A stretch of 64,000 nucleotides of DNA, taken from NCBI RefSeq assembly GCF_963921235.1, contig NC_086097.1, positions 168,952,001 through 169,016,000 on the forward strand, given 5' to 3'. Position 1 is the first letter of the stretch. Every line of letters starts with the position of its first letter. Made by a program: the position numbers and the translations under genes. Source of the DNA: Mobula hypostoma. Lineage: Eukaryota. The notes beneath the pieces were generated by a model that made no database searches, was not told the DNA's origin, and worked only from the letters and a program-made list of their open reading frames with translations. Of this stretch, positions 10,811 through 61,194 are shown one piece after another.

Positions 10811-13800
10811 ATTGTGTATTTAATATTTCAGTAATATTTCAGTGATCTTGTATATATACTTGCTGATTAAGCTATCTTGTTCATTTATATACAGGTGTAC
10901 CCTGCTTTTCAAACGTTCGCTTTACAAAACCTCACTGTTATGAAAGACCTACATTAGTACCCTGTTTTCACTTTCAGAAGGTGTTTTCACTGTTACGAAG
11001 AAAGGCAGCGTGCGCCCCTGAGCAGCCACTCTGCCCCAGATTCGGAACAGCATTGCTGAAACATGTTGCATTGAGCAGCCGTTAGCAAGATGAGTTCCAA
11101 GGTGTCGGAAAAGCCTAAAAGAGCTCGTAAGGGTGTTACACTTAGGGTAAAACGAGACATAATTAAGCGTTTCGATCGTGGTGAACGAAGCAAGGACAAA
11201 GTGAGTTTGGCTTGTGGAAGCTGACGAAGATGATGTTGAAGAGGTTTTGGTGTCCCATGACCAAGAACTGATAGATGAGGAGCTGATGCAATTGGAAGAG
11301 GAAAATATAACAATCGAAACCGAATGCAGAAAGTGAAGCAACTGCGTGAGATTTTCGCTGCAATGATAAAGTACGACTTTAATTTTGAAAGGGCACTTAG
11401 GTTTAGGGGATATTTGCAGGATGGTTTGAGTGCTTACAAACAACTGTATGATAGAAAAATGCGTGAGGCTCAGCAGTCAAGCAAGCCCTCCACATCAGCC
11501 ACAGCAGATGACGAACCTCGACCTTCGACATCGAGGCAGGCAGTCATAGGAGAAGATGAGCTGCCTGCCCTGATCGACGATGAGATGACACCCCTGTGTC
11601 CCACCACCCCAACACCTGGGCCCCGGACGGATACTGTACTGATTCGCGAAGAACGCAGCGGTAGCTGGGAAGCACACACCACATCTTTAAGAAGAAAGCC
11701 GAAATAAACATGCTAATTAATTAGGTGCCACCTAGCACGTAATTGTCGGCCCAGATCAGTGCCAATGCAATCAGCAATCACCTCTGACCTGCGCCGACAT
11801 TTACCTGCCGGGCAGCACCTAATTAATTAGCTTGCTTATTTCAGATTTTTTCTTAAAGATGTGCTGTGTGCCTCCCAGTTACCCCTGCCTGCTTTGCGGC
11901 AATATATCAGTCGGCAGCCTGGAGGGTGGGGGCCACTGCACCACCCAAACTCCAACGACTCAGTCTAACACACCATCATCAGTGTGCTCAATGTCTTCCC
12001 AATTCCCGTAAGTGATACTACACTGTACATACATTATTTCTACTTTATATAGGCTGTGTATTTTTACGTGTTATTTGGTAGATTTGGCAGCTTCATAGTT
12101 TAAAGGTTACTGGAGAGAGTGTTTTTGCCAACAGCGCTTGCGTGAGATTTTCGCTTCAGAGAACAGTGCTGGCAATGATTATGGAAAAGTATTTCTACTT
12201 TATATAGGCTGTGTATTTATCATATCATTCCTGCTTTTACTATATGTTACTGTTATTTTAGGTTTTATGTGTTATTTAGCATGATTTGGTAGGTTATTTT
12301 TGGGTCTGCGAACGCTCACAAAATTTTCCCATATAAATAAATGGTAATTGCTTCTTCGCTTTACGACATTTCGGCTTACGATCCATTTCATAGGAATGCT
12401 CTACCTTCGGATGGCGGGGGAAACCTGTAATTCATCATGGGTTATATGTCTAAATACATGATTTGCATATGTCATCATGCTACCATGCCTTGCTTGAAGC
12501 AAAAATGAAATACACGACTTATGTCCCAACTCTCTTGTTTTCCTTTGAATTAGCTTAAAGTTTTGAAGTTACAAAACTTAACGGTGGCGACAAGATATTT
12601 TTAAAACAAACCTGGTACAATTGTTGACCTGCTGAAGCGCAGAAACACGCAACGAGGAACAAGTGAAAAAAAGCGCAGCACAGCACATGCAAACACAGTT
12701 GAGTTTATTAAAAAAGGGCAGAAAATAGAAGAATTCATGTGTTCAAAAACATTGAGCACTGGGTGATAATAGTTATTAAAAAAAAGAGCAGAAATGGCTG
12801 GCTACATCAGAAAGATAGACTCATTTGATTGCTCAATGGGTAACTGGTTCATATATACTCAGCTAATTGAACAGTATTTTGAAGGAAATGAAATAGCCAA
12901 TGAGAAATAAGTACCAATTTTGCTGAGTGCATTGGGTTTAAAGTTTGCTTCAAAGTTTGACTGCTCCAACCAAACCAGCTGAAATGAGCTTTGCTGATAT
13001 AGTAAGTAATGCAAGGAACATCTAGAACCAAAAACATTGTTGATTGCAGAACACTTCAGGTTTTGTAAGTGGAATCAAGAAGAAGGGGAGTCCATGGGTG
13101 AATTGAAGATGTTGTCTTAGCAATGTCATTTCAGTGACGGGCTTAATGATGCATTGAGTGATTGTTTAGTTTGTGGAATCTTATAAGAAAGAATTCAAAA
13201 ATGGCTCCTAACCGAAAAAAAACTGAAATTTAAAAGAGCAGTTGAAATTGCTGTTTAAATGGAAACCGTAGACAGAGACACAATTGAGTTGCAGTCAGAA
13301 TGAAAGTGGGGATCAGCAAAATTGTAATGTCGAAACAGAAACTGACCTGGACAAACAAATTGTTACCATTAATGTACACCTTGCATACACCAGACCAATG
13401 CAGATTTAAAGACGAAACTTGCAGAAAATGCAACAAGGTTTGACACATATAAAGAGCATGTCAGGCCAACAAAAATAAATGGACAGCACAGGGTAGAGAT
13501 AAAGACAAAAAGTCAAGTTGCAGTTTCAAAAAGAGTCCTAATCTGCATGCTGTTGATGAAAAATCTGATACTGATGAGAGTGACACTGGACTAGCTAGCC
13601 TTGAGATTTACAATGTAAAAACTAATAACAGACAAGCAATATGGCTTACACCAGAAGTGAATGGAAAATTAATTAAAATGAATTGGCTTGGCTGTTTCAG
13701 CCATTCCACAAAACAAGTTTGAGCGGCATTTCAAAGATAATGAACTGAATCCTGCAGATAATCAACTAAGAATTTATACTGGAGAAAAGATAACTCCCGT

Positions 13801-15937: not shown

Positions 15938-16052
15938 TCCAGTTCAGCAGGGTCTCAGCCCAAAACGTTGACTGTACTCTTTTCCATAGATACTGCCTGG
16001 CCTGCTGAGTTCCTCCAGCATTTTGTGTGTGTTGCTTGGATTTCCAGCATTT
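15938..16052 (+). repeat. Degenerate PLE terminal repeat (decayed hammerhead region)
   Basis: gggtctcagcccaaaacgttgactgt...tgcctggcctgctgagttcctccagcattttgtgtgtgttgcttggatttccagcat. Confidence 0.75.
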
Positions 16053-20515: not shown

Positions 20516-22572
20516 TCTGTTTTTTTCTGGTCACCAGACCCAACCAGTTCCCCTCCACCACCACTTTCCTCCACCTAACAAAACTTGTCCTCACTCTAAA
20601 TAATTTATCCTTTGGCTCCTCCCACTTCCTTCAAACAAAAGGTGTAGCCATGGGCACTTCCATAGGTCTCAGCAATATCTGCCTGTTTGTCAGCTACATG
20701 GAACAATCTATGTTCCAAGCCTACACTGGTGACAATCCCGTACTTTTCCTACACGACCTCGATGACTACATTGGTGCTGCTTCCTACACCCATGTTGAAC
20801 TTGTTGACTTCATCCACTTTGCCTCCAACTTCCACCCTGCTCTCAAATTTATCTGGTCCATTTCCAACACCTCCCTCCCCTTTCTCGATCTCACTGTCTT
20901 TATCTCTTGAGAAAGTTTAACCACTGATGTCTATTATAAACCCACAGACTCTCACAGCTACTTGGACTATACCCCTTCCCATCCTATTACCTCTAAAAAC
21001 ACCAGCCCCTTCTCTCAATTTCTCTGTCTCCACCACATTTGTTCTCAGGAGGAAGCTTTCCATTCTAGAATGAAGGAGATGTCCTTTCTTAAAGAAAGAG
21101 GCTTCTCTTCCTCCAGCATCAACACTGCCCTCAACCGCATCTCTTCCATTTCATGCACGTCTGCTCTCATCCCATCCTCCCACCACCCTACCAAGGATAG
21201 GGTTCCTCTTGCCCTCACCTACCACAACCCACCAACCTCTGCATCTAGTACATTGTTCTCTGAAACTTCCGCCATCTCCAACAGGATCCCACCACCAAGC
21301 ACATCTTTCCATTCCCCGCCCCCCTCCACGTTTTGCTAACTGCAGTGATCGCTCCCTATATGACTCCCTTGGCAATTCATCCCTCCCCACTGATCTCCCT
21401 CCTGGAAATTATGCTTGGACAGAGTGGATGTGGCAAAGTTGTTTCCCATGATGGGGGAGTCTAGTACGAGAGGGCATGACTTAAGGATTGAAGGGCGCCT
21501 ATTCAGAACAGAAATGCGAAGAAATTTTTTTAGTCAGAGGGTGGTGAATCTATGGAATTTGTTGCCACGGGCAGCAGTGGAGGCCAAGTCATTGGGTGTA
21601 TTTAAGGCAGAGATTGATAGGTATCTGAGTAGCCAGGGCATCAAAGGTTATGTTGAGAAGGCGGGGGAGTGGGACTAAATGGGAGAATGGATCAGCTCAT
21701 GATAAAATGGCGGAGCAGACTCGATGGGCTGAATGGCTGACTTCTGCTCCTTTGTCTTATGGTCTTATGGTCTTGTAAGTGGAACAAGTGCTGCACCTGC
21801 CCCTACTCATCCTCCCTCACTACTATCCAGGGCCCTAAACAGTCCTTCCAGGTAAGGCAGCACTTCACCTGTGAGTCTGTTGGGGTCATATACTGTTTCC
21901 AGTGCTCTCGGTGTGGCCTTCTCTATATTGGTGAGACCCGTCATAGATGGGGAGATTGCTTCGCCAAGCACCTGCACTCGGTCCCCCATAAATAAGTAGG
22001 ATCTCCCAGTGGCCATCCATTTTAATTCCATTACCCATTCCATTTCTGATATATTTATCCATGGCCTCCTCCACTGTTGTGATGAGGCCACACTTAGGTT
22101 GGAAGAACAACACCTTATATTCCGTTTGAGTAGCTTCCAACCTGATGGCATGAACATTGATTTCTCAAACTTCTGGTAATACTCCCCAACCCCTCTTCAC
22201 CATTTCTCATCCCTTTTCCTTCTCTCTCCTCATCTCCTTGCCTATCCAACACCTCCCTCTAGTGCTCCTCCCCCCTTTTCTCTCTTCCATGTTGTTCCGT
22301 CTCTTTCACCAATCAACTTCCCAGCTCTTTACTTCATCCCTCCCCCTTCAGGCTTCACTTATCACATTGTGTTTCTCTCTCCCCTCCCTCCAACTTTTAA
22401 TTCTACTCCTCAGCTTCTTTTTCTCCAGTCCTACCGAGGGGTTTCAGCCCAAAACGTCGACTGTACTTTTTTCTATAGGTGCTGCCTGGCCTGCTGAGTT
22501 CCTCCAGCATTTTGTGTGTGTTGCTTGGATTTCCGGTATTTGCAGATTTTCTTTTGTTTGTGTTGTGTGTAT
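20516..22572 (+). mobile_element. 5'-truncated Penelope-like element (RT + GIY-YIG endonuclease + terminal repeat)
   Basis: QTKGVAMGT and LDDYIG (20506 ORF); VYYKPTDSHSYLDY..SHP; VIYCFQCSRCGLLYIGET (GIY-YIG); 14-bp TSD tgcattgRaagctc at 20502-20515 and 22573-22586. Confidence 0.9.
21417..21772 (+). mobile_element. CR1 3' end inserted in the PLE
   Basis: LDRVDVAKLFP...TRGHDLRIEG...RRNFFSQRVVNLWN; tail (tcttatgg)n. Confidence 0.9.
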
Positions 22573-23555
22573 TGCATTGGAAGCTCCATACTAGTTGATG
22601 ATGCAACCAGTCAGAATACTCTCCACAGTACAACTGTAAAAATTTGTTGGTGACATACAAAATTTCCTCATTAAATATATATACTGTAGCAGTGCCCATA
22701 CCTTCTTCATGATTGTATCAATGTGTTGGGCCCAGGATAGGTCTTCTGCTATGCTGATGCCCAGCATTTAATAAGGTCACATTTAATATCAAGAGAAGGG
22801 TGCTATATAACAGCACGGAAATGAAATAACCCCAGCATTAGCACAAATATGATGGGCTGAATAGCTTTAATCATATGAAACGTCTATTAATATTCAGTTT
22901 TTCTCATCAATCACATTACAAATTAACTGCCTGGGCATGTTACTTTCAAAGAGAATAAGAGTTATTTGGGTTCTTCCATCACTTTCTGTGTTATTCCAAA
23001 TTCTAGCATCTGCAGTCTTTTGTGTCTCTAATTATCAGAAAACAGCTGTTCTCCATTTTTTACTAAGAAAATACAATATGAATATACGGTATTGTGAACC
23101 CTTAAATAGAATGTAAAAGAGGAAATAGGTTTCATCAGTTTGGTTCTGCAACGTTACTCCACAGAAATCTTCCAGGTTTCCACGTGAAATACATCTTATT
23201 GATACATTCTATATTATTGCTCAGATTATAATCCCTTTTTTGAAGAATAGTGAAATGGAGGATTTGAAGATGAGCCAGAATAATAGCAAATACTTGTGAA
23301 GTTAAACATGCAAATATATTTGAGGTAAGTAATAAACCAAGTGAGTTCCAAAGGTTTGCATGCTCAAGAGTGATAGGGCAATAGAACATAGTTACAGGCA
23401 CTTTGGCTCAACAAGTCCATGTTGACAATGGTGCCAATCCAGCGAGTTGTAATTTCTTGTCCATTTCCCTCGAAGCCCTGTCCCTGTGTGTACCTATTCA
23501 AGAGTCATAGAGTAATAGAATACTACAACACTGAAATAGACTGAAGCATTAATCT

Positions 23556-23985
23556 CACAAACACGAGGAATTCTGCAGACGCTGGAAATTCAAGCAACAC
23601 ACATCAAAGTTGCTGGTGAACGCAGCAGGCCAGGCAGCATCTCTAGGAAGAGGTACAGTCGACGTTTCGGGCCGAGACCCTTCGTCAGGACTAACTGAAG
23701 GAAGAGCTAGTAAGAGATTTGAAAGTGGGAGGGGGAGGGGGAGATCCAAAATGATCCTCTCATATCCCTTTTGCCAATCACCTGTCCAGCTCTTGGCTCC
23801 ATCCCTCCCCTTCCTGTCTTCTCCTATCATTTTGGATCTCCTCCCTCCCCCTCCCACTTTCAAATCTCTTACTAGCTCTTCCTTCAGTTAGTCCTGACGA
23901 AGGGTCTCGGCCCAAAACATCGACTGTACCTCTTCCTAGAGATGCTGCCTGGCCTGCTACGTTCACCAGCAACTTTGATGTGTAT
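23556..23985. mobile_element. Inverted (tails-out) PLE mini-element inserted in the CR1 3' UTR
   Basis: Left arm on minus, right arm on plus of the same terminal repeat; perfect 14-bp TSD tgaagcattaatct at 23542-23555 and 23986-23999. Confidence 0.9.
23657..23692 (-). ncRNA. Minimal type-I hammerhead ribozyme motif (intact core)
   Basis: Minus strand reads AGUC-CUGACGA-A-GGG ucucgg CCC-GAAA-CG-UC-GACU: conserved core, stem I AGUC/GACU, stem II GGG/CCC, vestigial stem III with ACGU palindrome. Confidence 0.75.
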
Positions 23986-26900
23986 TGAAGCATTAATCTG
24001 GCTAGTCCCAGTGACGTGCAACTGGACCATAGCCCTTCATACCCCTCCCATCTATGTACCTATCCAAATTACTCTTAAATGTTGAAATTGACCACTTGCT
24101 CTGGCAGCTTGTTCCACACTCTCACCACCCTCTAAGTGAAGAAGATTCCCCTTAAACATTTCACCTTTCACCCTTAACCCATGACCTCTAATTGTAATCT
24201 CACCCAACCTCAGTGGAAAAAGCCTGCTTGCATTTACCCTGCCTATACTCCTCATAATAATGTACACCTCTATATAATCTCCCTTCAATCTTCTACAGTC
24301 TAGGGAATAAAGTCCTGACCTACTAAACCTTTCCCTTTTACTCAGGTCATCAAGTCCCCGCAACATCCTTGTCAATTTTCTCTTTCTTTCAATCTTATTT
24401 ACGTCTTTCCCGTAGGTTGATGAATGAAACTGCACGCAATGTTCTAAATTAGTCCTCACCAATACCTTATACAATTTCAATATAACATCACAAACTTTGT
24501 ACTCAATACATTGATTTAGGAAGGCCAATATGCCAAAAACTTTCTTTACATCCCTATCTACCTGTGACACCACTTTCTAAGAATTATGGATCAGCATTTT
24601 CAGATCCCGTGCTCCTTACTGCCCTACCACTCACCATGTAAGAACTACCCTGGTTGGTCTTCACAAAATGCAACACCTCACACTTGCCTGCATTTAGTTC
24701 CATCAGCCATTTTCCAGCCCATTTTTCCAGCTGATTCAGATCCCATTGCAAGCTTTGATAGAATTCCCCATTGTCTATTACACCCCGAATCTTGATGTCA
24801 TCTGCTAACTTGTTGATACAGTTAACCACATTATCATCCAGATTATTGATATAGATGACAAACAATAATGGACCCAGCACCAATCCCTTAGGCACTCCAC
24901 TAGTCAGAAGTCTCCAATCAGAGAGGCAACCATCTACTTGCACTCTTTGGCTTCTCCTGTAAAGCCAATATCTAATCCAATTTAGCACCTTATCTTGAAT
25001 GCTAAGTGACTGAATCTTCTTGACCAACCTTCCATGCGGGACCTTGACAAAGGCCTTGCTAAAATCCATGTAGAAAACATCCACTGACTTGCATTCATCA
25101 ACTTTCTTGGTAACTTACTTGAAAAACTCTATAAGATTGGTTAGAAATGAATTACCATGCACAAAGCCATGTTAACAATCTGTAACCAGTTCCTATCTAT
25201 CCATATACTTAAATATCTGGTCCCTTAGAATAACTTTCAATACCTTTCACACTATTGATGTCAGGCTCACCAGCATATAATTTTCTGACTTATTCTTAGC
25301 CATTCTTAGATAATGGAAAAATATTAGCTATACTTCAATCCTCCGGCACCTCACCTGTGGCTAGGGATGTTTTAAGTATCTCTACTAGGGTCCCTACAAT
25401 TTATGCACTGGCCTTCCACAGGGTCCAAAAGAACACATTGTCAGGCCCTAGGGATTTATTTACCCCACTTTGCTTGAAGACAGCAGACACCTCCTCCTCT
25501 GTAATCTGTATAGGGTTCATGACCTCACAATTGCCTCACATCTATAAACTCTGTCCATTTCCCGAGTAAATACAGATGTAAAAAATCCATTGAAGATCTC
25601 CCCCATCTCTTTCATCTCCATGCATAAATTAGCACTCTGATCTCGCAGAGGACCATTTTTGTCCCTTGCTATCCTTTTGCTCTTAATCTATCTGCAGAAA
25701 CCTTTAGGATCTCCTTTACCTTTGCTGTTAAAGCAACCTCATGCCTGTTTATTAGCCTTCCTAATTTCCTTCTTAAGTGTTCCCTTGCATTTCTTATACT
25801 CCTCAATTACCTCATTTGTTCCTACCTGCCTATAGCTGCTAAGCAACCATTTTTTTTCTTAACCAGGGTCTCAATATCTCTCGAAAACCAAGGTTCCCTA
25901 AACCTGTTATTGTTGCCTTTTATTCTGACAGGAACATACAAACCCTGTACTCTTAAAGTTTCACTTCTGAAGGACCCCCACTTACCAGAAAACAACCTGG
26001 CCCCAATCCGCACTTGCCAGATCCTTTCCGATACCATCAAAATTGGCCTCTCTCCAATTTAGAATCTCAGCCTGAGGACCAGACCTACCCTTTTCCATAA
26101 TTACCTTGAAACTAATAGCATTATGATCACTACATGCCAACTGTTTCCCTACACAAATTTCTGTCACCTGCCCTGTCTCATTCCCTAAATGGCAATCTCA
26201 TATGGCCCTGTCTCATTCCCTAAATGGCGATCTCTGTTACTGGGACTTCTATATCCTGATTAAGGAAATCTTCCTGAACACAATTGATAAACTCTTTCTC
26301 ATCCAGCCCTTATACAGTATGGGAATCCCAGTCAATATGAGGAAAGTTAAAATCAAGAACTATCACAACATTATGTTTCTTGCAACAGTCTGCAATCTCT
26401 CTATAAATTTGCTCCTTTAAATACCACGTACTGTTGTTTGGTCTATAATATAACCCCATTAACGTGGTCATACCTTTCTTATTCTTCAATTCTACCCATA
26501 AAGCCTCACTCGACAAGCTCTCCAGTCTGCCTTGACATTTTCCCTGACTAGTAATGTCACATCTCCTCCTTTAATCCCACCTGCTCTATCACATCTAAAA
26601 CAACGGAACCTTGGAATATTGAGCTGCCAGTCCTGTCCCTCCTGCAATCAAGTTTCACTAATGGCTACAATGTCATAATTCCATGTGTTAATCCATGCCC
26701 TAAACTTATCTGCCTTTCCTACAATACTCCTTGCATTGAAATATATGCAGCTCAGAATATTAGTCCCACAATGTTTGACCTTTTGATGCCCAACTTTGTA
26801 TGTAGGCATAAAAACATCTTTCTCCACAACCACTCCACCAACTGGTCTGATGCTATGAACAGCACTTCTTCCCACTAGGGTATTAGTCCCTTTCCAGTAC

Positions 26901-29307: not shown

Positions 29308-29414
29308 ATAGAGACACAAGGGACAGCAGATGCTGGAATCTTAGTCCAGATGCAGGGTTGTGACCCAAAACTTTTACTGTCTATTTCTCTCAACTGATGT
29401 TGTACTGAGTTCCT
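29308..29414. mobile_element. Old, degenerate inverted PLE mini-element
   Basis: Reverse-complement terminus (gacacaagggacagcagatgctggaatc) joined to a decayed hammerhead region; direct repeat tcagctctta at 29298-29307 and 29415-29424. Confidence 0.55.
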
Positions 29415-29424
29415 TCAGCTCTTA

Positions 29425-30400
29425 TAAACACAAAAGATGCTACAGGAAATCTTAAGCAACACAACCAGAATGCTGGAGGATCTCAGCAAGTCAGGTAGCA
29501 TCTATGGACAGGAATAGATATTTTGGGCCATCCCTTCATCAGGACTGTAAAGGGAGGGGGCAGAAGCTAGAATAAGGTGTGGGTAGGAATAGAGTACAAA
29601 CTGGCGGGTGATAGGTGAGACCAGGTGAGAGAGAAATAGGGTGTGTGGAGATGAAGTAAGAAGCTTGGGGGGATAGGTGGAAGAGGTAAAAGGCTGAAGG
29701 AGGAATCTTATAGGAGAGGACAGTGGACCATGGAAGAAACGGAAGGGGGAGGGCTACCAGAGGCAGATGATGGGCAGGTGAGAAGAGAAGGGGTTGACAG
29801 GGTAATCAGAATGATGAATGAAAAAAGAAAAGGAGAGTAGGAAGAAATTATGAGAAGTTGGAGAAATTGAAATTCATGTCATCAGGTTGCAGGCTACCCA
29901 GGCAGAATATGAGGTTTTGTTCCTCCAACCTGAGTTTGGCCTCATTACGGCAATAGAGAGGGCCATGGACAAACAGGTCAGAATGGGAATGGAAAGTTGA
30001 GCTGAAGTGGGTAACCACCGGGACATCCTGCCATCTGTGGTGAATAAAGCAGAGGCACTCGAAGAAGTGGTTCTCAATTTGTGTCATATCTCACTGCTAA
30101 AGAGATGACTACACTGGGAGCACCAGATATAATTTATGACACCAACAAATTCATAGGTGAAGTGTTGCTTCACCTGGAAGGACTGTTTGGGGCCCTGAGT
30201 AGTGGTGAGGGGGGAGGTGCAGTATTTGCTGCACTTGTAGGGATAAGCGCCAAGAAGATCAGTGGTGGGGGGATGAATGGATTAAAAAGTCATATAGAGA
30301 GCAATCTTATGGAAAGGGGAGGAGGGTAGGGAAAGTATGCGTAGTGGTAGGATCCCATTGGAAATAACAGAATATACGGAGAATGATGTGCTGGGATATG
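29425..30400 (-). mobile_element. Penelope-like element 3' fragment (GIY-YIG C-terminus + terminal repeat)
   Basis: ORF 29848-30087 DVPVVTHF...LRLEEQNLIFCLGSLQPDDMN, homologous to 21990-22160 and 50209-50484. Confidence 0.85.
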
Positions 30401-33442: not shown

Positions 33443-34020
33443 CTACATATTTCAGCTTATGTATTTGCTAAACTTCCTTCCGATGACTGAAATACATATA
33501 ATATGCTATAAGGTTTCACTGACAATGTAATGGTTTCTCTGTAGAAGCAATGTTTGGGTTATGACTAAAGATAATGGGGTCAGGAATGCTGTTGTTCTTT
33601 CTTGTGAATTAGAAGAGAGATTTTTGCGGTCTTTTGCCAAGGAGAGATGAGGTGAGAAGACGCGAATGGAGAGAGTTGGTAGACTGCCGGATGGGGTGGA
33701 CTTGGAGCGAGAGTCTGCTGGGCAGCGACGATCGGAGGTGGTCAATGGTGAACAATTGACTTATCAGTGAGTTCAAGTGTTGCACAACGGACTGCTTAGT
33801 AAGATTGTGCCCTTTTTTTTTCTTTTTTTTGTTTCTTTACTAACCACATAGTCAATAATCGTTTAATTGCATATTGTGTACTGTTCGTCATTTCAGGGTA
33901 CTGATTTGTAACAGGGACACATCATGCAGCATCCACCTAAATAAGATTTCTTAAGTTTGGCCAGGCTGGGGGCTATCACCCTCTATATTAAGCCGCTAGC
34001 CGAAGCGAGAGTTACAATTG

Positions 34021-34038
34021 TAGGGGCTCGTCCGGGAT
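34021..34038 (+). promoter_or_regulatory. Primer-binding site, tRNA-Pro
   Basis: taggggctcgtccgggat differs by one base from TGGGGGCTCGTCCGGGAT, 4 nt downstream of the 5' LTR. Confidence 0.85.
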
Positions 34039-34169
34039 TGATTCCGTTGGATGGGGTGTGATTACCCTGAGAAGTGAACCAGTGGGGCAGATATTTGTAC
34101 TCCGGATGAATTGTTAATTCCCCTGTTAAGTACTGTTGAAGTTGCGATTGTGGGTGGAGGTTTGATAAA

Positions 34170-34838
34170 ATGACTGGCGCAGCTCTCGTTTCAATGCAGA
34201 CCAGGCCTGAGGTAGCAGTAGTTGGGGGCGGAGATTTCAAAGATAGGGTTCTCTTGTTTCTGAGGAGTGAGGGGAAAGAGTGGTCAGATTTGGAATGTCT
34301 AATTAGTCCACGTCCCCTAGTGAAGAGTGAGAATTCTGAGTTAGTATCCGCCTTTACTTCTCTGGCGAATAAATGGAAAAATCAGATTCGAAGTCCCAGC
34401 TATGGCAGGCTCTGCCTATTCTCTGGAATAACGCCCACCCCTAAAGGGGAGGAGGAGTATGAGACTTGGGCGGAGAGGACCTCTCAGTTGTTAGATGAGT
34501 GGCAGTGCTCTGATGACGAAAAGCAACAGAGATTGGTTGAAAGTTTGAATGGGCAGGCCGCTGACATTGTGAGAGCTGTCAGGTTGAAATCTCCTGTAGC
34601 AACAGCTGTCAATTACCTGCAAGCACTGGACAATGCTTTTGGTCTCATTGGAAGCCCAATGGAGCTCATGGTGGGGTTTCAGAACATGCGTCAGGAGAAG
34701 GAGGAGAAGATTTCTGCTTTTATTTTTCGGCTAGAGAGGCAGCTAAATTGCTTGCAGCGCAGAGGGGTCATTCAGGCGGCTGAGGTGGATCAATTAAGAA
34801 TGGACCAGATAGCCGGGGCACCCAGTCCCATGACCTGA
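34170..34838 (+). pseudogene. Gypsy gag, PNMA (paraneoplastic Ma)-type capsid
   Basis: YGRLCLFSGITPTPKGEEEYETW...LLDEWQCSDDEKQQRLVESLNGQAADIV...YLQALDNAFG...QEKEEKISAFIFRLE; frameshifted near 34820. Confidence 0.85.
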
Positions 34839-35309
34839 TTGCTTAGGGTCTCCGACAGTCTCGTAAGACGCGCCCCCCTCTTTCTTTTGTTGAGCTGATC
34901 AGAGAGGTACAGGAAGAGGAGAACGCAGCGGCGGCGTGGAAGGACTCAGTCAGCAGGGTACAGTCCTTGGTAGTAGTTCCCTGCGGTGAAGTGACCACAG
35001 GTAGCCTGCCCCATGGAGCGGTAGAGGAGATTGTGGTAGAGTTGAGAATGGAGATATGTCGGCTGTTATCAGCAGGTGTGACTCCCCCATACGATGAAGC
35101 TGATGGGGGGGGCGGATTCCGCAAGGGGACGAACAATGCGGAGGGCTGCTGGCAGCAGGTGTCACACCAGAAGGAGAGTGAGCCCCCCGGTACCTAAGCA
35201 GAGAGAGTCGTTGGGAAACCCTAGAGGAGACCCAGTGAGGGAATGGCCTGGTGTCTCTGGGGAACACGTTCCCAGCAATGTACCAAGGAATCCCCGAAAG
35301 CAAAAGGCC

Positions 35310-38300
35310 TAATTCCTGAAGGCTTAGTGGGTCCATGCTCCAGTGCGTCGCTGCGAACAGAGGGTATGTATGCTAAAGCCATACTCAATACCAGGTCGCA
35401 GGTCATGTTGTTGTACCGTCCCTTCTACAACTGGTATCTGAAGCATTTACCATTGACACCATTCAGGGCACTGGAGATCTGGGGGCTTAGTGCTAGTGAT
35501 TATCCATATGATGGTTATTTGTCAGTGAAACTGGAGTTCTTGGAGGCCAATGTGGGAGTGTCTGAGGTCTTTGATACATTGGTGCTGGTTCGTCCGGACC
35601 CTGTTGAGAAGGGCGGCATTTCAATTCTGGTGACAACACTCCTTTTGTGAAGAGGCTCATGGGGGCCTGCAAAGAGAAGGCTGGTGAGAGCTTTCTGGGT
35701 ACATTATCTGTGCACCTGCGGTTTCGAGCTGCGTTTGAGGAAGTGCGTGGCAGCATTGGGCCGGATACCTAATTTAAACAAGGGACTGTGTGGTTCACCC
35801 ATTCAAAGCCAATGGTGGTACAGCCTGGGGAATTAGCAGGAGTGATGGGTCCCCCAAATTTCCCAGAGTGCCTGAGGGCAAAGCCCTCTTAGTGGACGCT
35901 CCGGAAGACCACGAAGGGGAGTCAGGATTCCCTGCTGGGGTACTGGTGAGGCCCAAATTGGAGAAGCCCTTGGTTGTACAGGAACACAGGATGGCAGTGA
36001 TTGTCAGGAGCACTACGCAGAGGGAGGGTCACCTTCAAGCAGGGGATGCCCTTGGAGCATTTGTTCCCGGTGACGGTAATGTCTAGTGCCCCTGTGAGAC
36101 ACGCCGGGGAGAAACTATTGGAAAAGGGGGGAAAGTTGACTGCTGAGTCAATCAACTTCAGGGATGCCCCGGTTCCTGCGGCTTGGAAGAGGAAACTGGT
36201 AGAGAAGATGTTGAAGCTGGAAGGTGTCTTTTCCACTGATGGGTTTGATGTGGGTTGTTCCAAGAGCATGTGTCACACTATCCGGGTGACTGAGGATACC
36301 CTGTTCAGAGAAAGGTTGCAGCGACTGGTCCCTGCAGAGGTGGAGGACGTTCGGCAGTGTTTGTGTAAATTGATGGAAGCTAGGATCATCACCGAGTCCC
36401 AAAGCCCCTATGCGTCCTCAATAGTAGTGGCCCGAAAGAAGAATGGGAAGGTATGGATGTGTGTGGACAATAGGACTCTGAACAGGCGCACCATCCCTGA
36501 CCAGTATACTGTCCCGAGGGCTGAAGATGCGCTGGCCTGCCTGAGTGGTGCGAAGTGGTTCAGTGTGCTGGACTTGAGGAGTGGATATTACCAGATCCCC
36601 ATGAGTGAGGCCGACAAAGAGAACATGGCATTTATATGTCCCCTGAGATTTTTCCAGTTCGAAAGGATGCCCCAGGGCATCTCGGGAGCTCCAGCAAACT
36701 TCCAGCAGGTCACGGAGAAGACAGTGGGGGATAAGAACTTGCTTCAGGTATTGGTATATTTGGATGACCTCATAGTATTTGGATCCACCTTGGAAGAACA
36801 TGAAGCGAGGCTGCTGAAGGTGCTGGGCCACCTGAAAGCTGAAGGGTTAAAACTTACCCTGGACAAGTGCCAGTTCTGCCAAACATCTGTTAGCTACGTT
36901 GGGAACATAGTCTCATAGATGGGGTAGCTACAGACCCAGCTAAGATCGAGGTGGTTACCACTTGGCCAAGGCCGCAGACTGTGAGCACTCTGCGCTCGTT
37001 CCTCAGGTTCTGTGGTTACTATCGGAGGTTTGTGAAAGGCTACGTGAAAGTGAGTCACCCTTTGAATCAGCTTCTGTGCAATTACCCTCCCTTGGGGAAG
37101 AAAGGGAGAGGGAAAAAAGGATAGGAGGGTGGAAAGTATCTTAGCCCATCGGAGTCCTTTGGACCGAGGTGGGATGCAAAATGTGAGGAGGCCTTTCAGT
37201 TGCTGAAGGAGCTGCTGACCCAGGCGCCAGTGCTGGCTTTTGCAGACCCCCGATTACCATATGTACTGCACACGGATGCCAGCCGAGAGGGCTTAGGGGG
37301 TGTCCGTGTCAGGATCAGAGCTCTGGGTTGAGGCCCGTCGCGTTTGTCAACCGGAGTCTGTTGCCCTCGGAGAAAAATTATCCCACGTACAAGTCAGAAT
37401 TTCTGGTGTTGAAATGGGTGGTGGTGGATAAGCTGAGTGACTACCTCTACAGGGTCAAGCTTGAGGTGAGGACGGACAACAACCCCCTAACTTACAGTAT
37501 ATCCTGACCTTGGCGAAACTGGATTCCACAGGCCATCGGTGGTTGGCGGTGATGTCTGCCTATGATTTCAAACTGAAGTACCGGACGGGAAGCAGGAACG
37601 TTGATGCTGATGCTTTGTCCTGACGGGCACATGAGGGACTGGTCAGGGATGAGGAGTGGGAGAGCGTTCCTGTCCCAGGGGTGAAAGCCCTGTGTTAGTA
37701 CGCCATCACCGTGAAGGCAGAGGAAAAGGAGGGGCAGGAGCGAGCAGTAGATCAATTGGGAACTTCTGATGATGCCGTCCCCCAAGTTTACTGTAACCTG
37801 ACTGCTCTGAAAACAAATCAGCTGCCAGAATTAAGTTCTGGGGAAATGACTGCTGCTCAGTGAGATGATCCGGGCATTGGTACCATTTGGGTGGCAGTTG
37901 AAAAGGGAGAAATGGCTCAGGCAGAGAGGGCAAAACACGTGTCAGTGCCTCCATTACTATGAGAATGGCCTCGGGTGGAGTTGAAGAACAGATCTTATGC
38001 CAGGTCATGTCACCCCCAGACCGACCCTGGCGTTGCCAGCTGGTTCTGCCCGAGAAATATCAGAGGATGGCGTTGAAATCACATCATGAATATTCTGGAC
38101 ATTTGGGGGTGGAAAAGACCTATGGATTCCTCAGAGACCGGTTTTACTGGCCCCATATGAAGTCGGAGGTTGAAGAATACTGCAAGTCATGCATTCGATG
38201 CATACGGCAGAAGACATCGCCTACACAGGCAGCTCCCTTCTCCCACCTTCAGAGTGTGGGGCCTCTGGACCAGGTGTGTATGGATTCCCTGTCAACAGAA

Positions 38301-39100
38301 CCTGATGCCAGCATCACAGCAAATGTCTTAGTCATCACAGACCACTACACCAGATATGCTCAGGCTTTTCCTACCAAGGACCCAAGGGCGTCTACAGTGG
38401 CAAGGGTGTTATGGGAGAAGTATTCCATTTATTACGGCCTTCCCAGGTGATCAGGGACGGGATTTCGAGAGCAGACTCATCCGAGAGTTACTGGGCATGC
38501 TTGGAGTCAAGAAGTCAAGGACCACGCTCTATCACCCACAGGGTGATTCCCCAGCCAGGGAGGTTTAACCAGACCTTGCTAGACATGATCGGGACCCTGG
38601 AGATCAGCAAGAAGAGCAGGTGGAGTCAACATATTGGGCATCTGGCTCACAGTTATAATTGTACGCGAAATGAAGCTACTGAGTACTCGCCATATTATCT
38701 GATGTTTGGGCGCAAGGCAAGGTTGCCCATTGACCTTTGTTTTGGGACTGATAAAGGTGACTTACTACCAAAGACTTAGCTGAAGTATGTGTCTGACATG
38801 AGAAGAGAGTTGAAAAGGACTTATGAATTAGCTGAGGTCGCGGCTGCCCAGCAGAATCAAGGGAATAAGAGAAGGCATGATCAAAAGGTGAGGTTCTCCC
38901 AACCCCTGCCGGGATACAGAGTCCTCATAAGGAATTTGGGGCTACCTGGAAAGCGCAAGTTGGCTGACCGCTGGGCGGCTATGCCCTATGTAGTGGAGAG
39001 TTAGATGCCAAACGTACCAGTTTTCCGGGTGAAACCAGAGGATGGGAATGGGTCTGTCAAGATTCTCCATCAGAACCACCTGTTGCCCCTGGGTCAGGAG
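35310..39100 (+). pseudogene. Gypsy pol (protease, RT, RNase H, integrase), disrupted
   Basis: AILNTRSQV (decayed DTGS); LDLRSGYYQ; MPQGISGAP; YLDD (36001-36918); LHTDAS; integrase HHEYSGHLG...CIRC, VITDHYTRY, DQGRDFES. Confidence 0.9.
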
Positions 39101-40272
39101 GTGCAGGTAGACCCAGAGCCCGACTTGGAGCCTACACCTAGTAAGAGGACTCTTTGGAAATGTGGGGGGGTGCTACCGGGGCTCCAACAGGCGAGGTTAG
39201 GCCAGCCCCCACCCCTGAGAGGGATACTGATTCGGAGGCTGAGGACCTGGATGTGTGGTATATGCCTCCTTTCGCCAACTCCCCATTGATTGAGGAAGAG
39301 ACTCTCGGCCCTTCTCCCATTGAGACAGGGGAAGTGGGGGGAGGGTGCTATCTGTGGGCATCCTGGGTTGCAGTCGGACTCTGTAGGGGAGGAAGCAGGG
39401 TTTGATCACGGAACAGAGAGCTCCGAGTTGCAGGTGGGCACGAGTGATAGATCGGGGGGAGGCATCACCAGGTAGACCGGAAGTATCCCCAGTAGCGTCG
39501 GAACCTGAAGAGTTGGATGATGGGGCGCGGAGGTCTCAGAGAATTAGGAGACTACCAGATAGGTTGGCCTACGTAGCACCAGGGGAACAGAGTGTGACAT
39601 CTACTGTGTTGGGGAGCTATGTCACTGCCTTTTACACCTGGATTGGGCTTTGTAGTTTGCAGGAAGGGTTGGCAAACTATCTCAACGTCATGAGGACATG
39701 ACTAAATTTGGTGGGGGGGATAGTGTAACATGCTGCAAGGTTTCACTGATAATATAATGGTTTCTCTGTAGCAGCAATGTTTGGGTTATGACTAGAGATA
39801 ACGGGGTTAAGAATGCTGTTGTTCTTTCTTGTGAGCTGGAAGAGAGATTTTTGTGGTCTTTTGCCGGGGAGAGATGAGGTGAGAAGACGCAAATGGAGAG
39901 AGTTGGTAGACTGCCGGACATGGTGGACTCGGAGCGAGGGTCCGAAGGGCAGCAACGATCGGAGGAGGTCGATGGTGAGCAATCGACCTATCAGTGAGCT
40001 CCAACATTGTGCAACAAACTGTTTAATAAGATTGGGCCCTTTTTAAATTTTTTTTTCGTTTCTTTACTAACCATATAGTCAAAGTTAGAAATATAAAGCT
40101 TAATCGTTAAATTGCATGCCGTGTACTGTTTGTCATTTTGGGGTACTGATTTGTTTCAGGGGACACATCACACAGCATCCACCCAAATGAGATTTCTTAA
40201 GTTTGGCCGGGCCGGGGACTATCACCCCCTATATTAAGCCGCTAGCTGAAGTGAAACTTACATACACATTAC

Positions 40273-49805: not shown

Positions 49806-49880
49806 TTAGTAACAGGAACACACTTCATCAAAGTTGCTGGTGAACGCAGCAGGCCAGGCAGCAACTCTAGGAAGAGGTAC

Positions 49881-49916
49881 AGTCGACGTTTCAGGCCGAG
49901 ACCCTTCGTCAGGACT
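49881..49916 (-). ncRNA. Minimal type-I hammerhead ribozyme motif (intact core)
   Basis: Minus strand agtc-CTGACGA-agggtctcggcct-GAAA-cg-TC-gact. Confidence 0.7.
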
Positions 49917-51112
49917 AACTGAAGGAAGAGTTAGTAAGAGATTTGAAAGTGGGAGGGGGAGGAGGAGATCCAAAATGATAGGAGAAGACAGGAGGGGGAG
50001 GGATGGAGCCAAGAGCTGGACAGGTGATGGGCAAAAGGGGATATGAGAGGATCATGGGACAAGAGGCCCAGGGAGAAGGAAAGGGGGGGGAACCAGAGGA
50101 TGGGCAAGGGGTATAGTCAGAGGGACAGAGGGGAGAAAAAGGAGAGTGAGAGAAAGAATGTGTGTTTAAAAATACATAACGGATGGGGTACGAGGGGGAG
50201 GTGGGGCATTAGTGGAAGTTAGAGAAGTCAATGTTCATGCCATCAGGATGGATGCTACCCAGACGGAATATAAGGTGTTGTTCCTCCAACCTGAGTGTGG
50301 CTTCATCTTTACAGTAGAGGAGGCTGTGGGTAGACATGTCAGAATGGGAATGGGATATGGAATTAAAACATGTGGCCACTGGGAGATCCTGCTTTCTCTG
50401 GCAGACAGAGAGTAGATGTTCAGCAAAACGGTCTCCCAGTCTGCATCGGTCTCGCCAATATATAGAAGGCCACATCGGGAGCACCGGATGCAGTATATCA
50501 CCCCAGTCGACTCACAGGTGAAGTGTCACCTCACCAGTCTGGGGCCCTGAATGGTGGTAAGGGAGGAAGTGTAAGGGCATGTGTAGCACTTGTTCCGCTT
50601 ACAAGGACAAGTGCCAGTTCTCTGTCTGCCAGAGAAAGCAGGATCTCCCAGTGGCCACACATTTTAATTCTACGTCCCATTCCCATTCTGATGTGTCTAT
50701 CCACGGTCTCCTCTACTGTAAAGATGAAGCCACACTCAGGTTGGAGGAACAACACCTTATATTCCGTCTGGGTAGCCTCCAACCTGATGGCATGAACATT
50801 GACTTCTCTAACTTCCGCTAATGCCCCACCTCCACCTCGTACCCCATCTGTTATGTATTTTTATACACACCTTCTTTCTCTCACTCTCCTTTCTTTCCCC
50901 CTCTGTCCCTCTGACTATACCCCTTGCCCATCCTCAGGGTTTCTCCCCCCCCTTTTCCTTCTCCCTGGGCCTCCTGTCCCATGATCCTCTCAGATCCTCT
51001 TTGCCAATCACCTGTCCACCTCTCCATCCCTCCCCTCCTGTCTTCTCCTATCATTTTGGATCTCCCCCTCTCCCTTCCACTTTCAAATCTCTTACTAACT
51101 CTTCCTTCAGTT

Positions 51113-51148
51113 AGCCCTGATGAAGGGTCTCGGCCTGAAACATCGACT
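51113..51148 (+). ncRNA. Minimal hammerhead motif, partly mutated
   Basis: agcc-CTGATGA-agggtctcggcct-GAAA-ca-TC-gact; core intact, but the stem III palindrome and stem I carry substitutions. Confidence 0.55.
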
Positions 51149-51604
51149 GTACCTCTTCTTAGAGATGCTGCCTGGCCTGCTGCGTTCACCAGCAACTTTG
51201 ATCAACTTGAATTTCCAGCATCTGCAGAATTCCTCTTGTTTGCATTAGTAACAGCATATGGCCAATACATTCTAGCAAGAATGAAAGGCATAGATGGAAA
51301 GATGATTGAATATTGGATGGAAAAAAATGAGAAAAAAATGCATATAGCAGATAGAGCTAACTAGAATGACAGGAATCTCTGAGAAGTATGGATGTGTAGG
51401 GATAAAATGAGGAGGGCGAAAAGGGGCCATGGAATACTTTTGGCAATTAAGATTAAAGAGATTTCTCTGACATTTTATAAGTATATCAGGAGCAAGAGTG
51501 CAGTCTTGGAAAGACAGCAAGTCAGAACAGACAATGTTTACTGTCCTAGCTTCATAAGTCTTCTTGCTTAGCTCTTCAAAAAACTCAATCAAATTAGGAA
51601 GACA

Positions 51605-56881: not shown

Positions 56882-58585
56882 TTTTTCTTTTTTTTTGTAA
56901 TTTATTTTTATTGAAGTTCATCATCAAACAAATATTTCCATAAGATGTATTTCAGATATTGTACATATATATCATATAATCATATTTGCCACAAATCTCC
57001 ACATAATATTTATCTGAGGTATATACCTATAGAAAAGCGAGGAAAGAAAGAACAAGCAAAAGGAGAAAACTGTGTACAGAGTAGGGAGTGATCTTTTTTT
57101 TACAACATATTCATTGATTTGTGAGAATAAAATCAGGCCTATGAGATGTTATGTAGTTGAACCATTTTTCCCAGTATGAATCAAATTGTTCCAATTTATG
57201 ATTAACAGATTATTAATTATCTTCTCCATTTTGTAAATGTCCATTGTAATTTCCATCCATGCGTTTAAAGTTGGGCTCTCCTGTGATAACCATTTCCTGG
57301 TGAGAGTCTTTTTACCAGCCACCAGCAGTATATTCATTAAATATTTATCTCTTTTCAACCATTCTTGAGGTACATACCCAAAATATATGGTCTTACTTTC
57401 TAAGGGTATTTCACATTTAAAGATGTCTTTTAGGGCATTGTGTATCCCACTCCAATAGTCTTTGATAACGAGGCAATCCCAGAAAATATGATAATGGTCT
57501 GCATTTTGATTTCCACAATTTCTCCAGCAAACAGAGAGATTACTATCATAATGGGATTTCTGAGAGGGTGTAATAAAACATCTTATCAAGTTTTTCCATC
57601 TGAACTCCCTCCATTTCTGTGAACTGGTACACTTCCATTGATATCTCCATATTATTGTCCATTCTTCCTCCAATATAATTATCCCTACTTCCTTCTCCCA
57701 TTTTGTTTTAATGTATGAAGTCGAATGTGTTTTAAGATTTGACAAACCTTTATCCATGCTTGAGATGATTCTACTACCGTTATCTGAATTATATGCTTTT
57801 CTAAATAATTCTATCAAACATGTGTAACCGGGTGACCTTATTCAGTATCGTTAAAAGTGTACTTACACGTCCATCCGGGTAATGCTAGAATAGTTGTCTG
57901 TGCCTTTAAGGGAGACGGTGAAGTCATTACCCATACGCGGGATAGTGGGGAGACCATTTCGTTTTCTGCTGAAGACGCTGGTGGGGCGTTGGAATCTGGT
58001 CTCTCCCAGAGTGTGCTGGGCATTGTGAGGAAAGGTGAGCATTAATTGACGATATCCATGTGAATTCATTTATTCTTGCTGGCGAATTGAGAATATCGGT
58101 AGTTTGACATGTTTTACATGTGGATGCTTTAGGTTTTCTGTAGTGAATGACTCAACGCTGGATCACGTGGCTTGGGCAAAGTTCCTCACCAGCCAAGTAT
58201 GTCATTCTTCCTGTAATTTAACTACCAGGCAATATCTTGTAAAAGTTGCGCCAAAGTGTACCTTTTGTCTAACTTTATTGTATCAGGACTGATTGTGCAT
58301 GTAACCGCGTAACGTGAATGTTTAGTCTCTGTTCGGAAGTTCAGCACGTGTGTACGTCTTAGATGAGATGTATTCACTTACATTTTTCGCTTTTATGTAT
58401 AAGATGCAGGGTGGGTGGGATTCTAATGTTGTTTGTATTGTGTTCTTTCAGGATTGCCACTACTGTATTTGTACTGTATTAGTTCTGGTATTTTTTATAC
58501 TGCATACGCAACTCTGTCCATACACAAGGGTGTGGATCGAAAGTTAAACTGAGACTGTAACGGCAAGAACTGGTTGTAAATTCAT

Positions 58586-58699
58586 TCGCAAACAAGAGGA
58601 ATCCTGACGAAGGGTCTCGGCCTGAAACGTCAACTGTACCTCTTCCTAGAGATGCTGCCTGGCCTGCTGCGTTCACCAGCAACTTTGATGTGAGTTGCC
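58586..58699 (+). mobile_element. 114-bp PLE mini-insertion carrying a hammerhead core, in the 5' LTR only
   Basis: 11-bp TSD tgtaaattcat at 58575-58585 and 58700-58710; the 3' LTR has the empty site near 63585. Confidence 0.9.
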
Positions 58700-58826
58700 T
58701 GTAAATTCATACGTTTTGTTTCGCGACCCTCTACTGGCACTTAAACATCGAAAACCGATAAAGGAATTAAAACTCGAAAAAGTCTTTGTTGTCCTGAGCA
58801 TGTACTTTTCCCCAGGCTACAAAATC

Positions 58827-58845
58827 TGGTACCAGGAGTGGGGTT
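58827..58845 (+). promoter_or_regulatory. Primer-binding site, tRNA-Leu(UAA)
   Basis: tggtaccaggagtggggtt is complementary to the vertebrate tRNA-Leu(UAA) 3' end ...AACCCCACTCCTGGTACCA (tRNA sequence recalled from memory). Confidence 0.85.
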
Positions 58846-59149
58846 AATTCCAAGCCAGTTGAGAGGGTCTCTGATTGCTGTATGCAGTATAATATACAGT
58901 ACCTAATACAGTAGTGGTGAAGACAGTACCATGTTCCCGTTGGGAGGAAGGAGAGAGTGCGGTAGAGCCACGTGGAAAACGCGCTGGAGCCTCGGGAACG
59001 GGCCGGGACATCAACGACTGACGTCAGGACGCAGAGCGGTGATGTGGACCCCAGGAACTGTGGGCCGTGAAGCCAGCGCGTTTGCAGCAAAGGATGGCAG
59101 CAACTCCTTTTGCAGGCTTGTGTGCACTTTAAAGACTTAAGCTTTTACT

Positions 59150-60131
59150 ATGTCACACTCAGAGGACATACTAGTTGAACTTGAGTTGAATGAACAAATT
59201 AGGGAATTGCGTAGTAGGTATGATGAAGCCATGGCAACCATAGATAAATTAAGCAAAAGGTCCTATGTATATGTCCCAAGGGAAAGACACATTGTTCCAT
59301 TTATGGGGGATGTTGATAACTTTATTGAAGAAGTACAATGTGCACATCATAGTAGAAATCAGTCTGACCAGGATCAGTATGACTTTGTTATGTCCCTGCT
59401 CAGGGCTGCAGCCTTAGATGAAGCACGTATGCGCAGTGATGCTGGGGAAGACCCCGCTGATGACTTGTTCACCTATCTCAGGGAAGCTTTTAGAGACAAG
59501 CGTAATGCACCCCAGCAGTGGCATAGCTTCTACAGTCGCAAACAGCGTGAGGGTGAAGATGTAATAGAGTTTTCACATGCCCTAGCCCAAGCTCTTAACT
59601 TGATACTGAAGCACTTCCCTGATGCTGTGACCGATAAGAGAGTGGTGCTAAGAGATCAATTTATAGAGGGGATCAGGGATTCTTCCCTCAGAAGGGAGCT
59701 CCACAGATTCGTGCGGGGCCACCCTGAGTCCTCAATGATAGTAGTGAGGGAGGGGGCTCGTCTGTGGCTTGTAGAAGAGCCCCTGGGAAGTCAAAGTGTA
59801 GCAGTGGCCAGGCACAGTGCTTGCATTGGGGCTTAAAGCTTGGGAATCTGAGTCTGTCACACTAGATGATGTCCTTAAAGTGGTCGCAGAGCAGGGCAAA
59901 GCCCTTTGTGAATTGACTCAAGCAGTGAAAGATCTCACTGTGCAGAGGGATTTTACACATGCTACTCACAGCAGATGTAATTTACAGCCTAGGTTCACAG
60001 AGGATGGGCAACCAATATGTTTCAAGTGTCAGGTGGGAGGGCATTTGGCCAAGAATTGCCCACGGAAGGGAAGTGGAGTCTGCATCCTCCTCCCCTCAAG
60101 AGGTTGGGAGTCGGGCAATTCGGCGGAACCT
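59150..60131 (+). pseudogene. Gypsy gag with CCHC zinc knuckle (frameshift near 59830)
   Basis: YVYVPRER; FYSRKQREGE; LRDQFIEGIRD; CFKCQVGGHLAKNC. Confidence 0.85.
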
Positions 60132-60136
60132 CATAG

Positions 60137-61157
60137 TGTCATGGTCCGGTCCGCGAAGTCCGTATTCCAGTTCACGGTCTGGTCCATCAACTCTAGCTCC
60201 AGGTTTTCCTGTCTACCCTGTTTCTGTTCTTGTGGAGCTCTAACTGAAGTAGCTGATGCTCATTGGGGCTGGCTGCATAAATACCTTCAGAGACCAGGGC
60301 ATGGCTGCTGGATTGTTCTTGTCCTTACTCCTTGTATCCTTTCCTCTGCCTTCTGTTTCCTCACCTGAAGCCCTGCCTTGTCTTGCCGGTAACTCTCGTC
60401 TCACCTGAAGTTCTCATCTCGCCTTGCATTGTCTGAAGCCTTGCCTTGTCTTGCTGGTAACTCTCACCTTGGCTCGCCTGCAGTCTTGTCCTGGAGCTAC
60501 CCTGTACCTAGCTCCCTTCCTGTCCCTTGCCTCCGCCCAGGTAAGTCAGGCCGTCTTGCCGTTACCTGCAGTTGGTTGTGTCCCTTCCTGTCCCTTGCCT
60601 CCGTCGGGTAAGCCAGGCCGTCTTGCCGTTACCTGCAGTTGGTTCTGTCCCTTCCTGTCCCATGCCTCCATCGGGTGGTGATCCGCGCCCTGCCGAGGAG
60701 TACCGCGCCCTGCCCAGGAGGAGCCTGCCTAGCCACAAGCCTGAAGACTCCAGCCTCCTGCCTAGCCTCAAGCCAGAAGACTCCAGCCTCCTGCCAAGCC
60801 TCACCTCAAGACTCTAGCCTCTAGCCTCAAGCCTGACGACCCCAGTCCCTTGCCTCCTGCCAAGCCTCGTCTCTAGCCTCTAGCCTGAAGACTCCACCCT
60901 CATCCTGCCTGCCTGCCAAGTCACGTCCTTGCCTAGTTCTGGGGTCCGAGCCAGAGGCAAGACCCAGGTACTGGTCCTTGTCCAGTCTCTGGCTCGGAGT
61001 CCAAGCCCGGGCTCCTAGCTCTCTTGTCCAGTCCTGTTCCGGGTTCCCGGTTTTCGTGTCCATGTCCTTGCCCTCAGCCTGTATCCTAGTCCTGTCCCTA
61101 GTACATCAGTGTCTGTGTCTTGCACTTGGGTCCGTTCCCAGCCACTGCTTTATGACA
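60137..61157. mobile_element. Solo-LTR-like insertion with internal minisatellites at the gag-pol junction
   Basis: TGTCAT...ATGACA terminal inverted hexamer; 5-bp TSD catag at 60132-60136 and 61158-61162; tandem units at 60515-60900. Confidence 0.8.
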
Positions 61158-61194
61158 CATAGATGCAGATAATGTACAGCTATCCCGTGACCAG

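Follow-up and report, generated by a model that had tools for sequence, protein, structure and literature searches.

The 64,000-nt stretch of Mobula hypostoma DNA analysed here (the window) carries, at 23657-23692 on the minus strand, what looks like a hammerhead ribozyme in the terminal repeat of a Penelope-like element (PLE). The original prediction held that this abundant family seeds the genome with potentially self-cleaving RNA motifs, including in introns. The locus thus raises the question of whether such a motif cuts, in which RNA, and what it does for the element that carries it. The reading that we favor, and consider probable, is that it is the pseudo-LTR hammerhead of a Neptune-type PLE, predicted to be a weak cutter that acts in transcripts of more than one unit as a double hammerhead, probably helped by protein, with lone copies likely inert.

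Minimal hammerheads in the window

The minus strand at 23657-23692 reads AGUC-CUGACGA-A-GGGU-CUCG-GCCC-GAAA-CG-UC-GACU, a complete minimal type I hammerhead (C11.1 form) with a predicted cut between 23661 and 23660. A second complete copy at 49881-49916 on the same strand, identified by pattern match, has the same sequence except for U at position 11.1, the form that prevails genome-wide. Both contain the CUGANGA/GAAA core and the UH, in type I order, with an extra A between positions 9 and 10.1, stems I and II of 4 bp each, and a predicted GUC cut site; the 15.1-16.1 segment is an ACGU palindrome, and a stable helix III is absent. The two intact copies therefore lie where they had been placed, and their anatomy is that of the PLE terminal-repeat hammerhead originally described, with a vestigial palindromic stem III and an additional nucleotide after A9. 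A pattern search of the window allowing up to 3 mismatches gave 5 matches, against none in 100 shuffles. A structural descriptor, one of the searches suggested with the original prediction, matched 37 times in 664 kb; 32 of these matches had a palindromic stem III segment, 31 of the 32 were the PLE motif, and neither the reversed sequence nor 3 Markov controls gave a match. The other suggested search, an Rfam covariance-model scan, returned no hammerhead family at E values up to 10, which is unsurprising for a motif without helix III. The miRNA and UTR families that Rfam matched were rejected as a reflection of the inverted repeat.

The copy at 23657 forms part of a short, tail-out inverted PLE insertion with two pLTR ends (23556-23985), bounded by a 14-nt target-site duplication (23542-23555 and 23986-23999); its second arm holds a hammerhead on the plus strand (23890-23925) inactivated by G12>A and G16.2>A. 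Another tail-out inverted insertion, 5'-truncated (49816-51244; 10-nt target-site duplication at 49806-49815 and 51245-51254), contains the 49881 copy and, upstream of it on the same strand, a frameshifted remnant of a CxxC linker and GIY-YIG domain (50245-50600, minus strand; recognized in translation, GIY-YIG E 0.043, below the Pfam cut-off). The hammerhead of its inverted arm (51113-51148), said to have an intact core and damaged flanks, lies on the plus strand; its palindrome is broken by G16.2>A, and there is a mismatch in stem I. A 114-nt insertion at 58586-58699 (plus strand; 11-nt target-site duplication) consists of a short inverted tail piece followed by a copy that starts inside stem I, at 58602. 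Its core is exact, as had been reported, but the flank damage needs correction, since stem I is incomplete through 5' truncation and a G>A change lies immediately 3' of the cut. These window insertions are the ends of 5'-truncated copies, with target-site duplications of 10-14 nt, and two of them are tail-out inverted pairs.

The remaining copies are decayed. An old one at 15938-15975 (plus strand; core 5' strand disrupted) and that at 23890 agree in this with the original list, and so does an old one at 29345-29380 (plus strand), where GC replaces the core GA as in an old subfamily. The decayed hammerhead at 22427-22462 (plus strand), the end of a copy beginning near 21772, had been listed at 22425-22465 as a product of decay; its A6C change is instead inherited from an older subfamily, described below. 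An additional decayed hammerhead at ~29511-29546 (minus strand) was absent from the earlier list.

A Neptune-type Penelope-like element carries the motif

Reverse transcriptase (RT, in longer copies), a CxxC linker and an endonuclease (EN) domain of the GIY-YIG type are encoded upstream of the motif on the same strand. One open frame contains both RVT_1 (E 5e-5) and GIY-YIG (E 6.5e-4), both below the curated Pfam cut-offs, and the zinc-finger-like CxxC linker between RT and EN is visible in translations; a PDB search with the RT-EN stretch returned just one weak, irrelevant match. Endonuclease-bearing (EN+) PLEs of the Neptune clade are described with the same order of RT, Cys-rich CxxC linker and C-terminal GIY-YIG, and likewise with partial tandems, inverted 5'-truncated copies and an optional 30-40 bp tail (Craig et al. 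2021, PMC8557442). By its encoded domains, the host is an endonuclease-bearing PLE of the Neptune type, assigned to the clade by domain order and linker alone.

We examined the best 30 of 40 scored loci bearing the 5' part of the ORF, drawn from 1,463 candidates. The motif was present at the 5' end in 7 of these 30, and all 7 complete 5' ends reach about 175 to >530 nt upstream of the cut. In 5 of those 7 loci, taken at 10 kb each, two motifs share one orientation at a spacing of 3,502-3,523 nt. In complete elements, both pseudo-LTRs carry the motif, in the sense of the RT-CxxC-GIY-YIG ORF that lies between the two; its long open frame starts ~55 nt past the predicted cut, with a shared in-frame ATG ~140 nt past it. 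Two loci, L221 (G000:C71:18986001-18996000) and L222, hold 3 motifs each in one orientation, a tandem arrangement of more than two units.

An abundant family with variant cores

The family is as abundant as first proposed. The 3.48-Gb genome contains 45,139 exact matches to a 34-nt pattern; with the loop, N7 and H17 left free, there are 13,449 C11.1 and 45,254 U11.1 copies, or 58,703 intact-pattern copies (~one per 59 kb), and the reversed-pattern control gave none. A G10.1-U11.1 pair is thus present in 77% of intact-pattern copies, and the G-C pair in 13,449, including that at 23657. Two disjoint tail patterns matched the genome 54,872 and 45,340 times, and 864 kb of unbiased sequence held 13 intact copies against 14.6 expected. 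The number of exact-pattern copies far exceeds the counts of ~4,000 minimal motifs in coelacanth and ~9,000 in Xenopus, which were obtained by descriptor in older assemblies (PMC4209133); axolotl retrozymes reach up to 120,000 copies (PMC7229834). With ~100,000 young ends, this one genome preserves naturally the points at which the family's reverse transcription begins and ends.

We grouped 82 full-span copies into four subfamilies (45, 10, 7 and 3 copies), the other 17 falling in clusters of 1-2. Among the four subfamily consensuses, 9 of 36 columns vary in the motif, 31 of 36 in the upstream flank and 11 of 36 in the downstream tail; the difference between motif and upstream flank (Fisher p 2.6e-7) is inflated by alignment slips in a pyrimidine tract, and conservation of the motif does not exceed that of the tail. 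In contigs of related organisms, homology ends at the stem I edge in 3 of 4 organisms (loose ends at 23692). The changes listed inside the motif in other organisms are mostly minority CpG changes and changes at N7, whereas near-fixed differences lie in the flanks. Stem changes retain pairing (U-G to U-A, G-C to G-U), most being one-sided, with 2 two-sided cells. Covariation beyond the flanking repeat, by which the original prediction was to be judged, did not exceed that of shuffles (0.190 versus 0.188; 157/500) in a biased 37-row alignment in which one row was mis-oriented and the search patterns had set many of the columns.

One older subfamily (loci L191-L220; 22427-22462 in the window) carries A6C in a consensus that is otherwise intact across the motif. 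It gave 2,008 strict matches, and among the first 100 listed the position was C in 96, T in 3 and A in 1. A6C is the founder state of the subfamily and was inherited. In a phage hammerhead, the same change is reported to leave activity low but detectable (PMC3088659), and it is also reported to shift metal preference (PMC7151607). A further older subfamily reads CUGAUGC instead of CUGAUGA, closes stem II with a U-A pair and gave 104 strict matches; at the corresponding position, 100 listed matches include 10 with C, 1 with G and none with T. The A6C and U11.1 forms offer natural core variants for side-by-side assay.

That an A6C lineage was amplified calls into question any need for catalysis. 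The motif might then be kept mainly as a non-catalytic signal, such as a transcript start, a splice acceptor or a binding site for RT or another protein, with cutting incidental. We consider this unlikely. The 2,008 A6C matches, with the lowered activity reported for the phage hammerhead, the 104 CUGAUGC matches and the covariation at shuffle level all fit such a signal, but the core and the ACGU palindrome are nearly fixed where the upstream flank turns over (9/36 versus 31/36 variable columns), and stem changes retain pairing.

Lone copies are predicted to be inert

Hammerhead RNA that begins at stem I is predicted to form stems I and II with a pairing probability of ~0.9. By ViennaRNA, the minimum-energy fold of the monomer is a rod that pairs GACG with CGUC, that is, the core with the cut site, and the hammerhead-like open state has a probability of 0.0008. 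Against our favored reading, the stem-swapped double hammerhead (-14.7 kcal/mol) is worse than two separate rods (2 x -11.9), in a program that ignores tertiary contacts, and the ACGU duplex contributes only -3.1 kcal/mol. An alternative register of stem II with A-U closing in the U11.1 form was rejected, as it is worse (-4.6 versus -6.0 kcal/mol). In the 23657 copy, the native upstream sequence is predicted to cut stem I pairing from 0.92 to 0.03, a level as low as that of 1-9% of shuffles; such sequestration is less clear in the 49881 copy, where 24% and 41% of shuffles were as low (28 or 45 nt of flank).

Partners for a double hammerhead are scarce as well. Of 13 intact copies sampled, none lay within 5 kb of another intact copy on its own strand; where stretches had been chosen without bias, 9 of 10 neighbouring pairs were tail-out inverted. 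Given the monomer rod, the sequestered stem I, the lack of a same-strand partner and the mostly tail-out pairs, lone truncated copies such as that at 23657 are likely inert. Elsewhere, the minimal hammerhead of S. mansoni was inactive as a monomer and weak as a dimer (PMC4209133), and the Anolis motif cut only with protein and was dispensable for insertion in vitro (PMC11167929). By analogy with these reports, any cutting likely needs tandem transcripts and helpers. We would expect weak cleavage in the Mobula hypostoma element to occur in the same manner, by a double hammerhead that forms when a transcript exceeds one unit, and probably aided by protein.

These results bear directly on the extension of the original prediction to introns, in which dispersed copies would cleave the pre-mRNAs of the host, acting singly or as dimers formed in trans. 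Trans dimers are conceivable at 58,703 copies, ~one per 59 kb, but with an ACGU duplex of -3.1 kcal/mol, a monomer predicted to misfold, an upstream flank predicted to weaken the pairing of stem I at 23657, and neighbouring partners usually on the opposite strand (9 of 10 close pairs), we regard the idea as very improbable. Nor was any host exon of 110 aa or more recognized among the ORFs of the window. The motif at 23657 is ordinary for a PLE, and the analysis lends the host-intron idea no support.

Copies run across the predicted cut

We mapped ends in 139 copies picked by tail alone, leaving out edge-cut copies and the motif-picked stretches L107 and L111. The 3' ends fall in two groups, ~+65 and ~+102 nt past the predicted cut (86/139 at +80 or less, 52/139 at +95 or more), and the copies extend through the cut site. 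Just 4 of the 139 5' ends lie within 2 nt of it. Since linear ribozyme-cut RNA would yield copies starting from the cut, we infer that the templates were either uncut or religated.

The Poseidon_Ac element (PAc) of Anolis carolinensis shares this 3'-end pattern; it is described as having two internal RT starts and an optional ~36-nt tail, with the hammerhead upstream of the RT starts, copies made from uncut RNA and no cut-site ends (Frangieh et al. 2024, PMC11167929). By analogy, RT of the Mobula hypostoma element would start internally at two 3' sites on uncut RNA, and hammerhead cutting would not be the template-making step. A cut-and-religated circle would likewise give copies across the cut, which counts against the uncut-template reading. 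Under this proposal, made in PMC4209133, both hammerheads of a tandem transcript cut, and religation yields a 3.5-kb circle that serves as RT template, which would also account for the varying length of the 5' pseudo-LTR in complete elements. We nevertheless find it improbable, as there is no excess of linear cut products (4/139 copies at the cut), the Anolis element took unprocessed RNA as its main substrate (PMC11167929), and a circle does not predict the accumulation of ends at stem I, to which we now turn.

Ends gather at the ribozyme front edge

The 5' ends of copies cluster where the ribozyme begins, at its front edge: 37 of 139 lie at -34 to -21, compared with 16 and 17 in the flanking 28-nt zones (p 1e-9), a zone chosen after the data were seen and a count in which inverted arms enter twice. 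The 101 copies that carry no inversion flag give 18 against 7 and 11 (p 6e-5); restricting the comparison to the 25 copies of unbiased stretches gives a p of 0.06. As the pile-up is present for both tail lengths, it tracks position in the RNA and not copy length. Bins beyond -70 were left unused because ungapped extension makes them unreliable. As to an untemplated G, which would be a cap mark, a G precedes the junction in 5 of 10 host-joined copies whose 5' end lies at -34 to -30. In our reading, RT would often stop or fold back at the 5' strand of the ribozyme, which would produce both the short and the tail-out inverted insertions.

At some junctions (for instance in L054, L260, L252 and L037), 7-17 extra nt lie between the target-site duplication and the 5' end of the element. 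Their sequence is in many cases a copy of target or inverted-tail sequence, which suggests template jumps at second-strand joining.

In all subfamilies, a pyrimidine tract followed by YAG (23691-23720, minus strand) directly precedes or enters the motif, the AG being the first two bases of stem I, and forms a candidate 3' splice acceptor. In the young family, branch-point-like words lie upstream of it.

The signal hypothesis introduced above has further points in its favor here: 5' ends gather at the front edge rather than at the cut, a pyrimidine precedes the stem I AG behind the pyrimidine tract in all 78 AG copies examined, and an intron in Drosophila virilis is likewise reported to end at helix I (PMC4209133; PMC2377424). 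Because the whole 3' UTR is ~80% pyrimidine, however, the tract is weak evidence for a splice acceptor, and homology to related organisms, which ends exactly at the stem I edge, also speaks against a mainly non-catalytic signal. Our preferred reading, a weak double hammerhead in the pseudo-LTR, leaves room for a more tentative idea: the 5' edge of the ribozyme may be the boundary of a pseudo-LTR transcript start or splice acceptor. The motif could then fold only in RNA with stem I at its very start, since native upstream sequence is predicted to sequester it in read-through RNA; RT would run off or stall at this edge, and catalysis would be a tunable extra. If this were true, run-off or stalling at the edge would generate fold-backs and stubs fronted by the ribozyme in their tens of thousands, and the A6C and G10.1-U11.1 lineages could weaken catalysis with mobility kept.

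Relation to known hammerhead elements

The motif class, its location, the dimer model and the dispersal as lone or opposite-strand copies have already been described by Cervera and De la Pena (2014; PMC4209133). The minimal hammerheads described there in metazoan PLEs (Xena, Poseidon and Neptune) share with ours the type I topology, a short helix I, an extra nucleotide between 9 and 10.1, a palindromic 15.2-16.2 segment, a site in both pseudo-LTRs ~3 kb apart, and mostly lone copies with close pairs on opposite strands. In addition to the copy number, the Mobula hypostoma motif differs from those described in having a 4-bp helix II (7-8 bp in S. mansoni), a G10.1-U11.1 pair in 77% of copies rather than a conserved G-C, and the A6C and CUGAUGC lineages. 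PAc belongs to the Poseidon clade, and its ORF starts in stem II, whereas the Mobula hypostoma frame starts ~55 nt past the cut; PAc has been assayed biochemically (PMC11167929).

Non-LTR retrozymes of axolotl, coral and mussel also combine a type I hammerhead with high copy number, but are described as non-coding tandem repeats with mostly canonical motifs and circular RNAs (PMC7229834; bioRxiv 10.64898/2026.07.22.740005). We rejected a retrozyme identity, as the Mobula hypostoma copies are the dispersed, truncated and ORF-linked ends of an autonomous element. Our search found no published report on this lineage or on a PLE hammerhead from a shark or ray; one 2026 preprint includes a chondrichthyan genome, its supplements lying outside the search. 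The function of PLE hammerheads in general is described as still open (PMC8557442).

Other features of the window

Two further stretches resemble LTR retrotransposons: 33499-40025, whose direct repeats are 86% alike and whose gag/pol-like frames are broken, and 57964-63273, with repeats 95% alike. As the PLE stub at 58586-58699 lies inside the latter, the stub is probably the younger of the two. Overlapping open frames at 10949-11707 may encode a Harbinger-type Myb/SANT-like protein.
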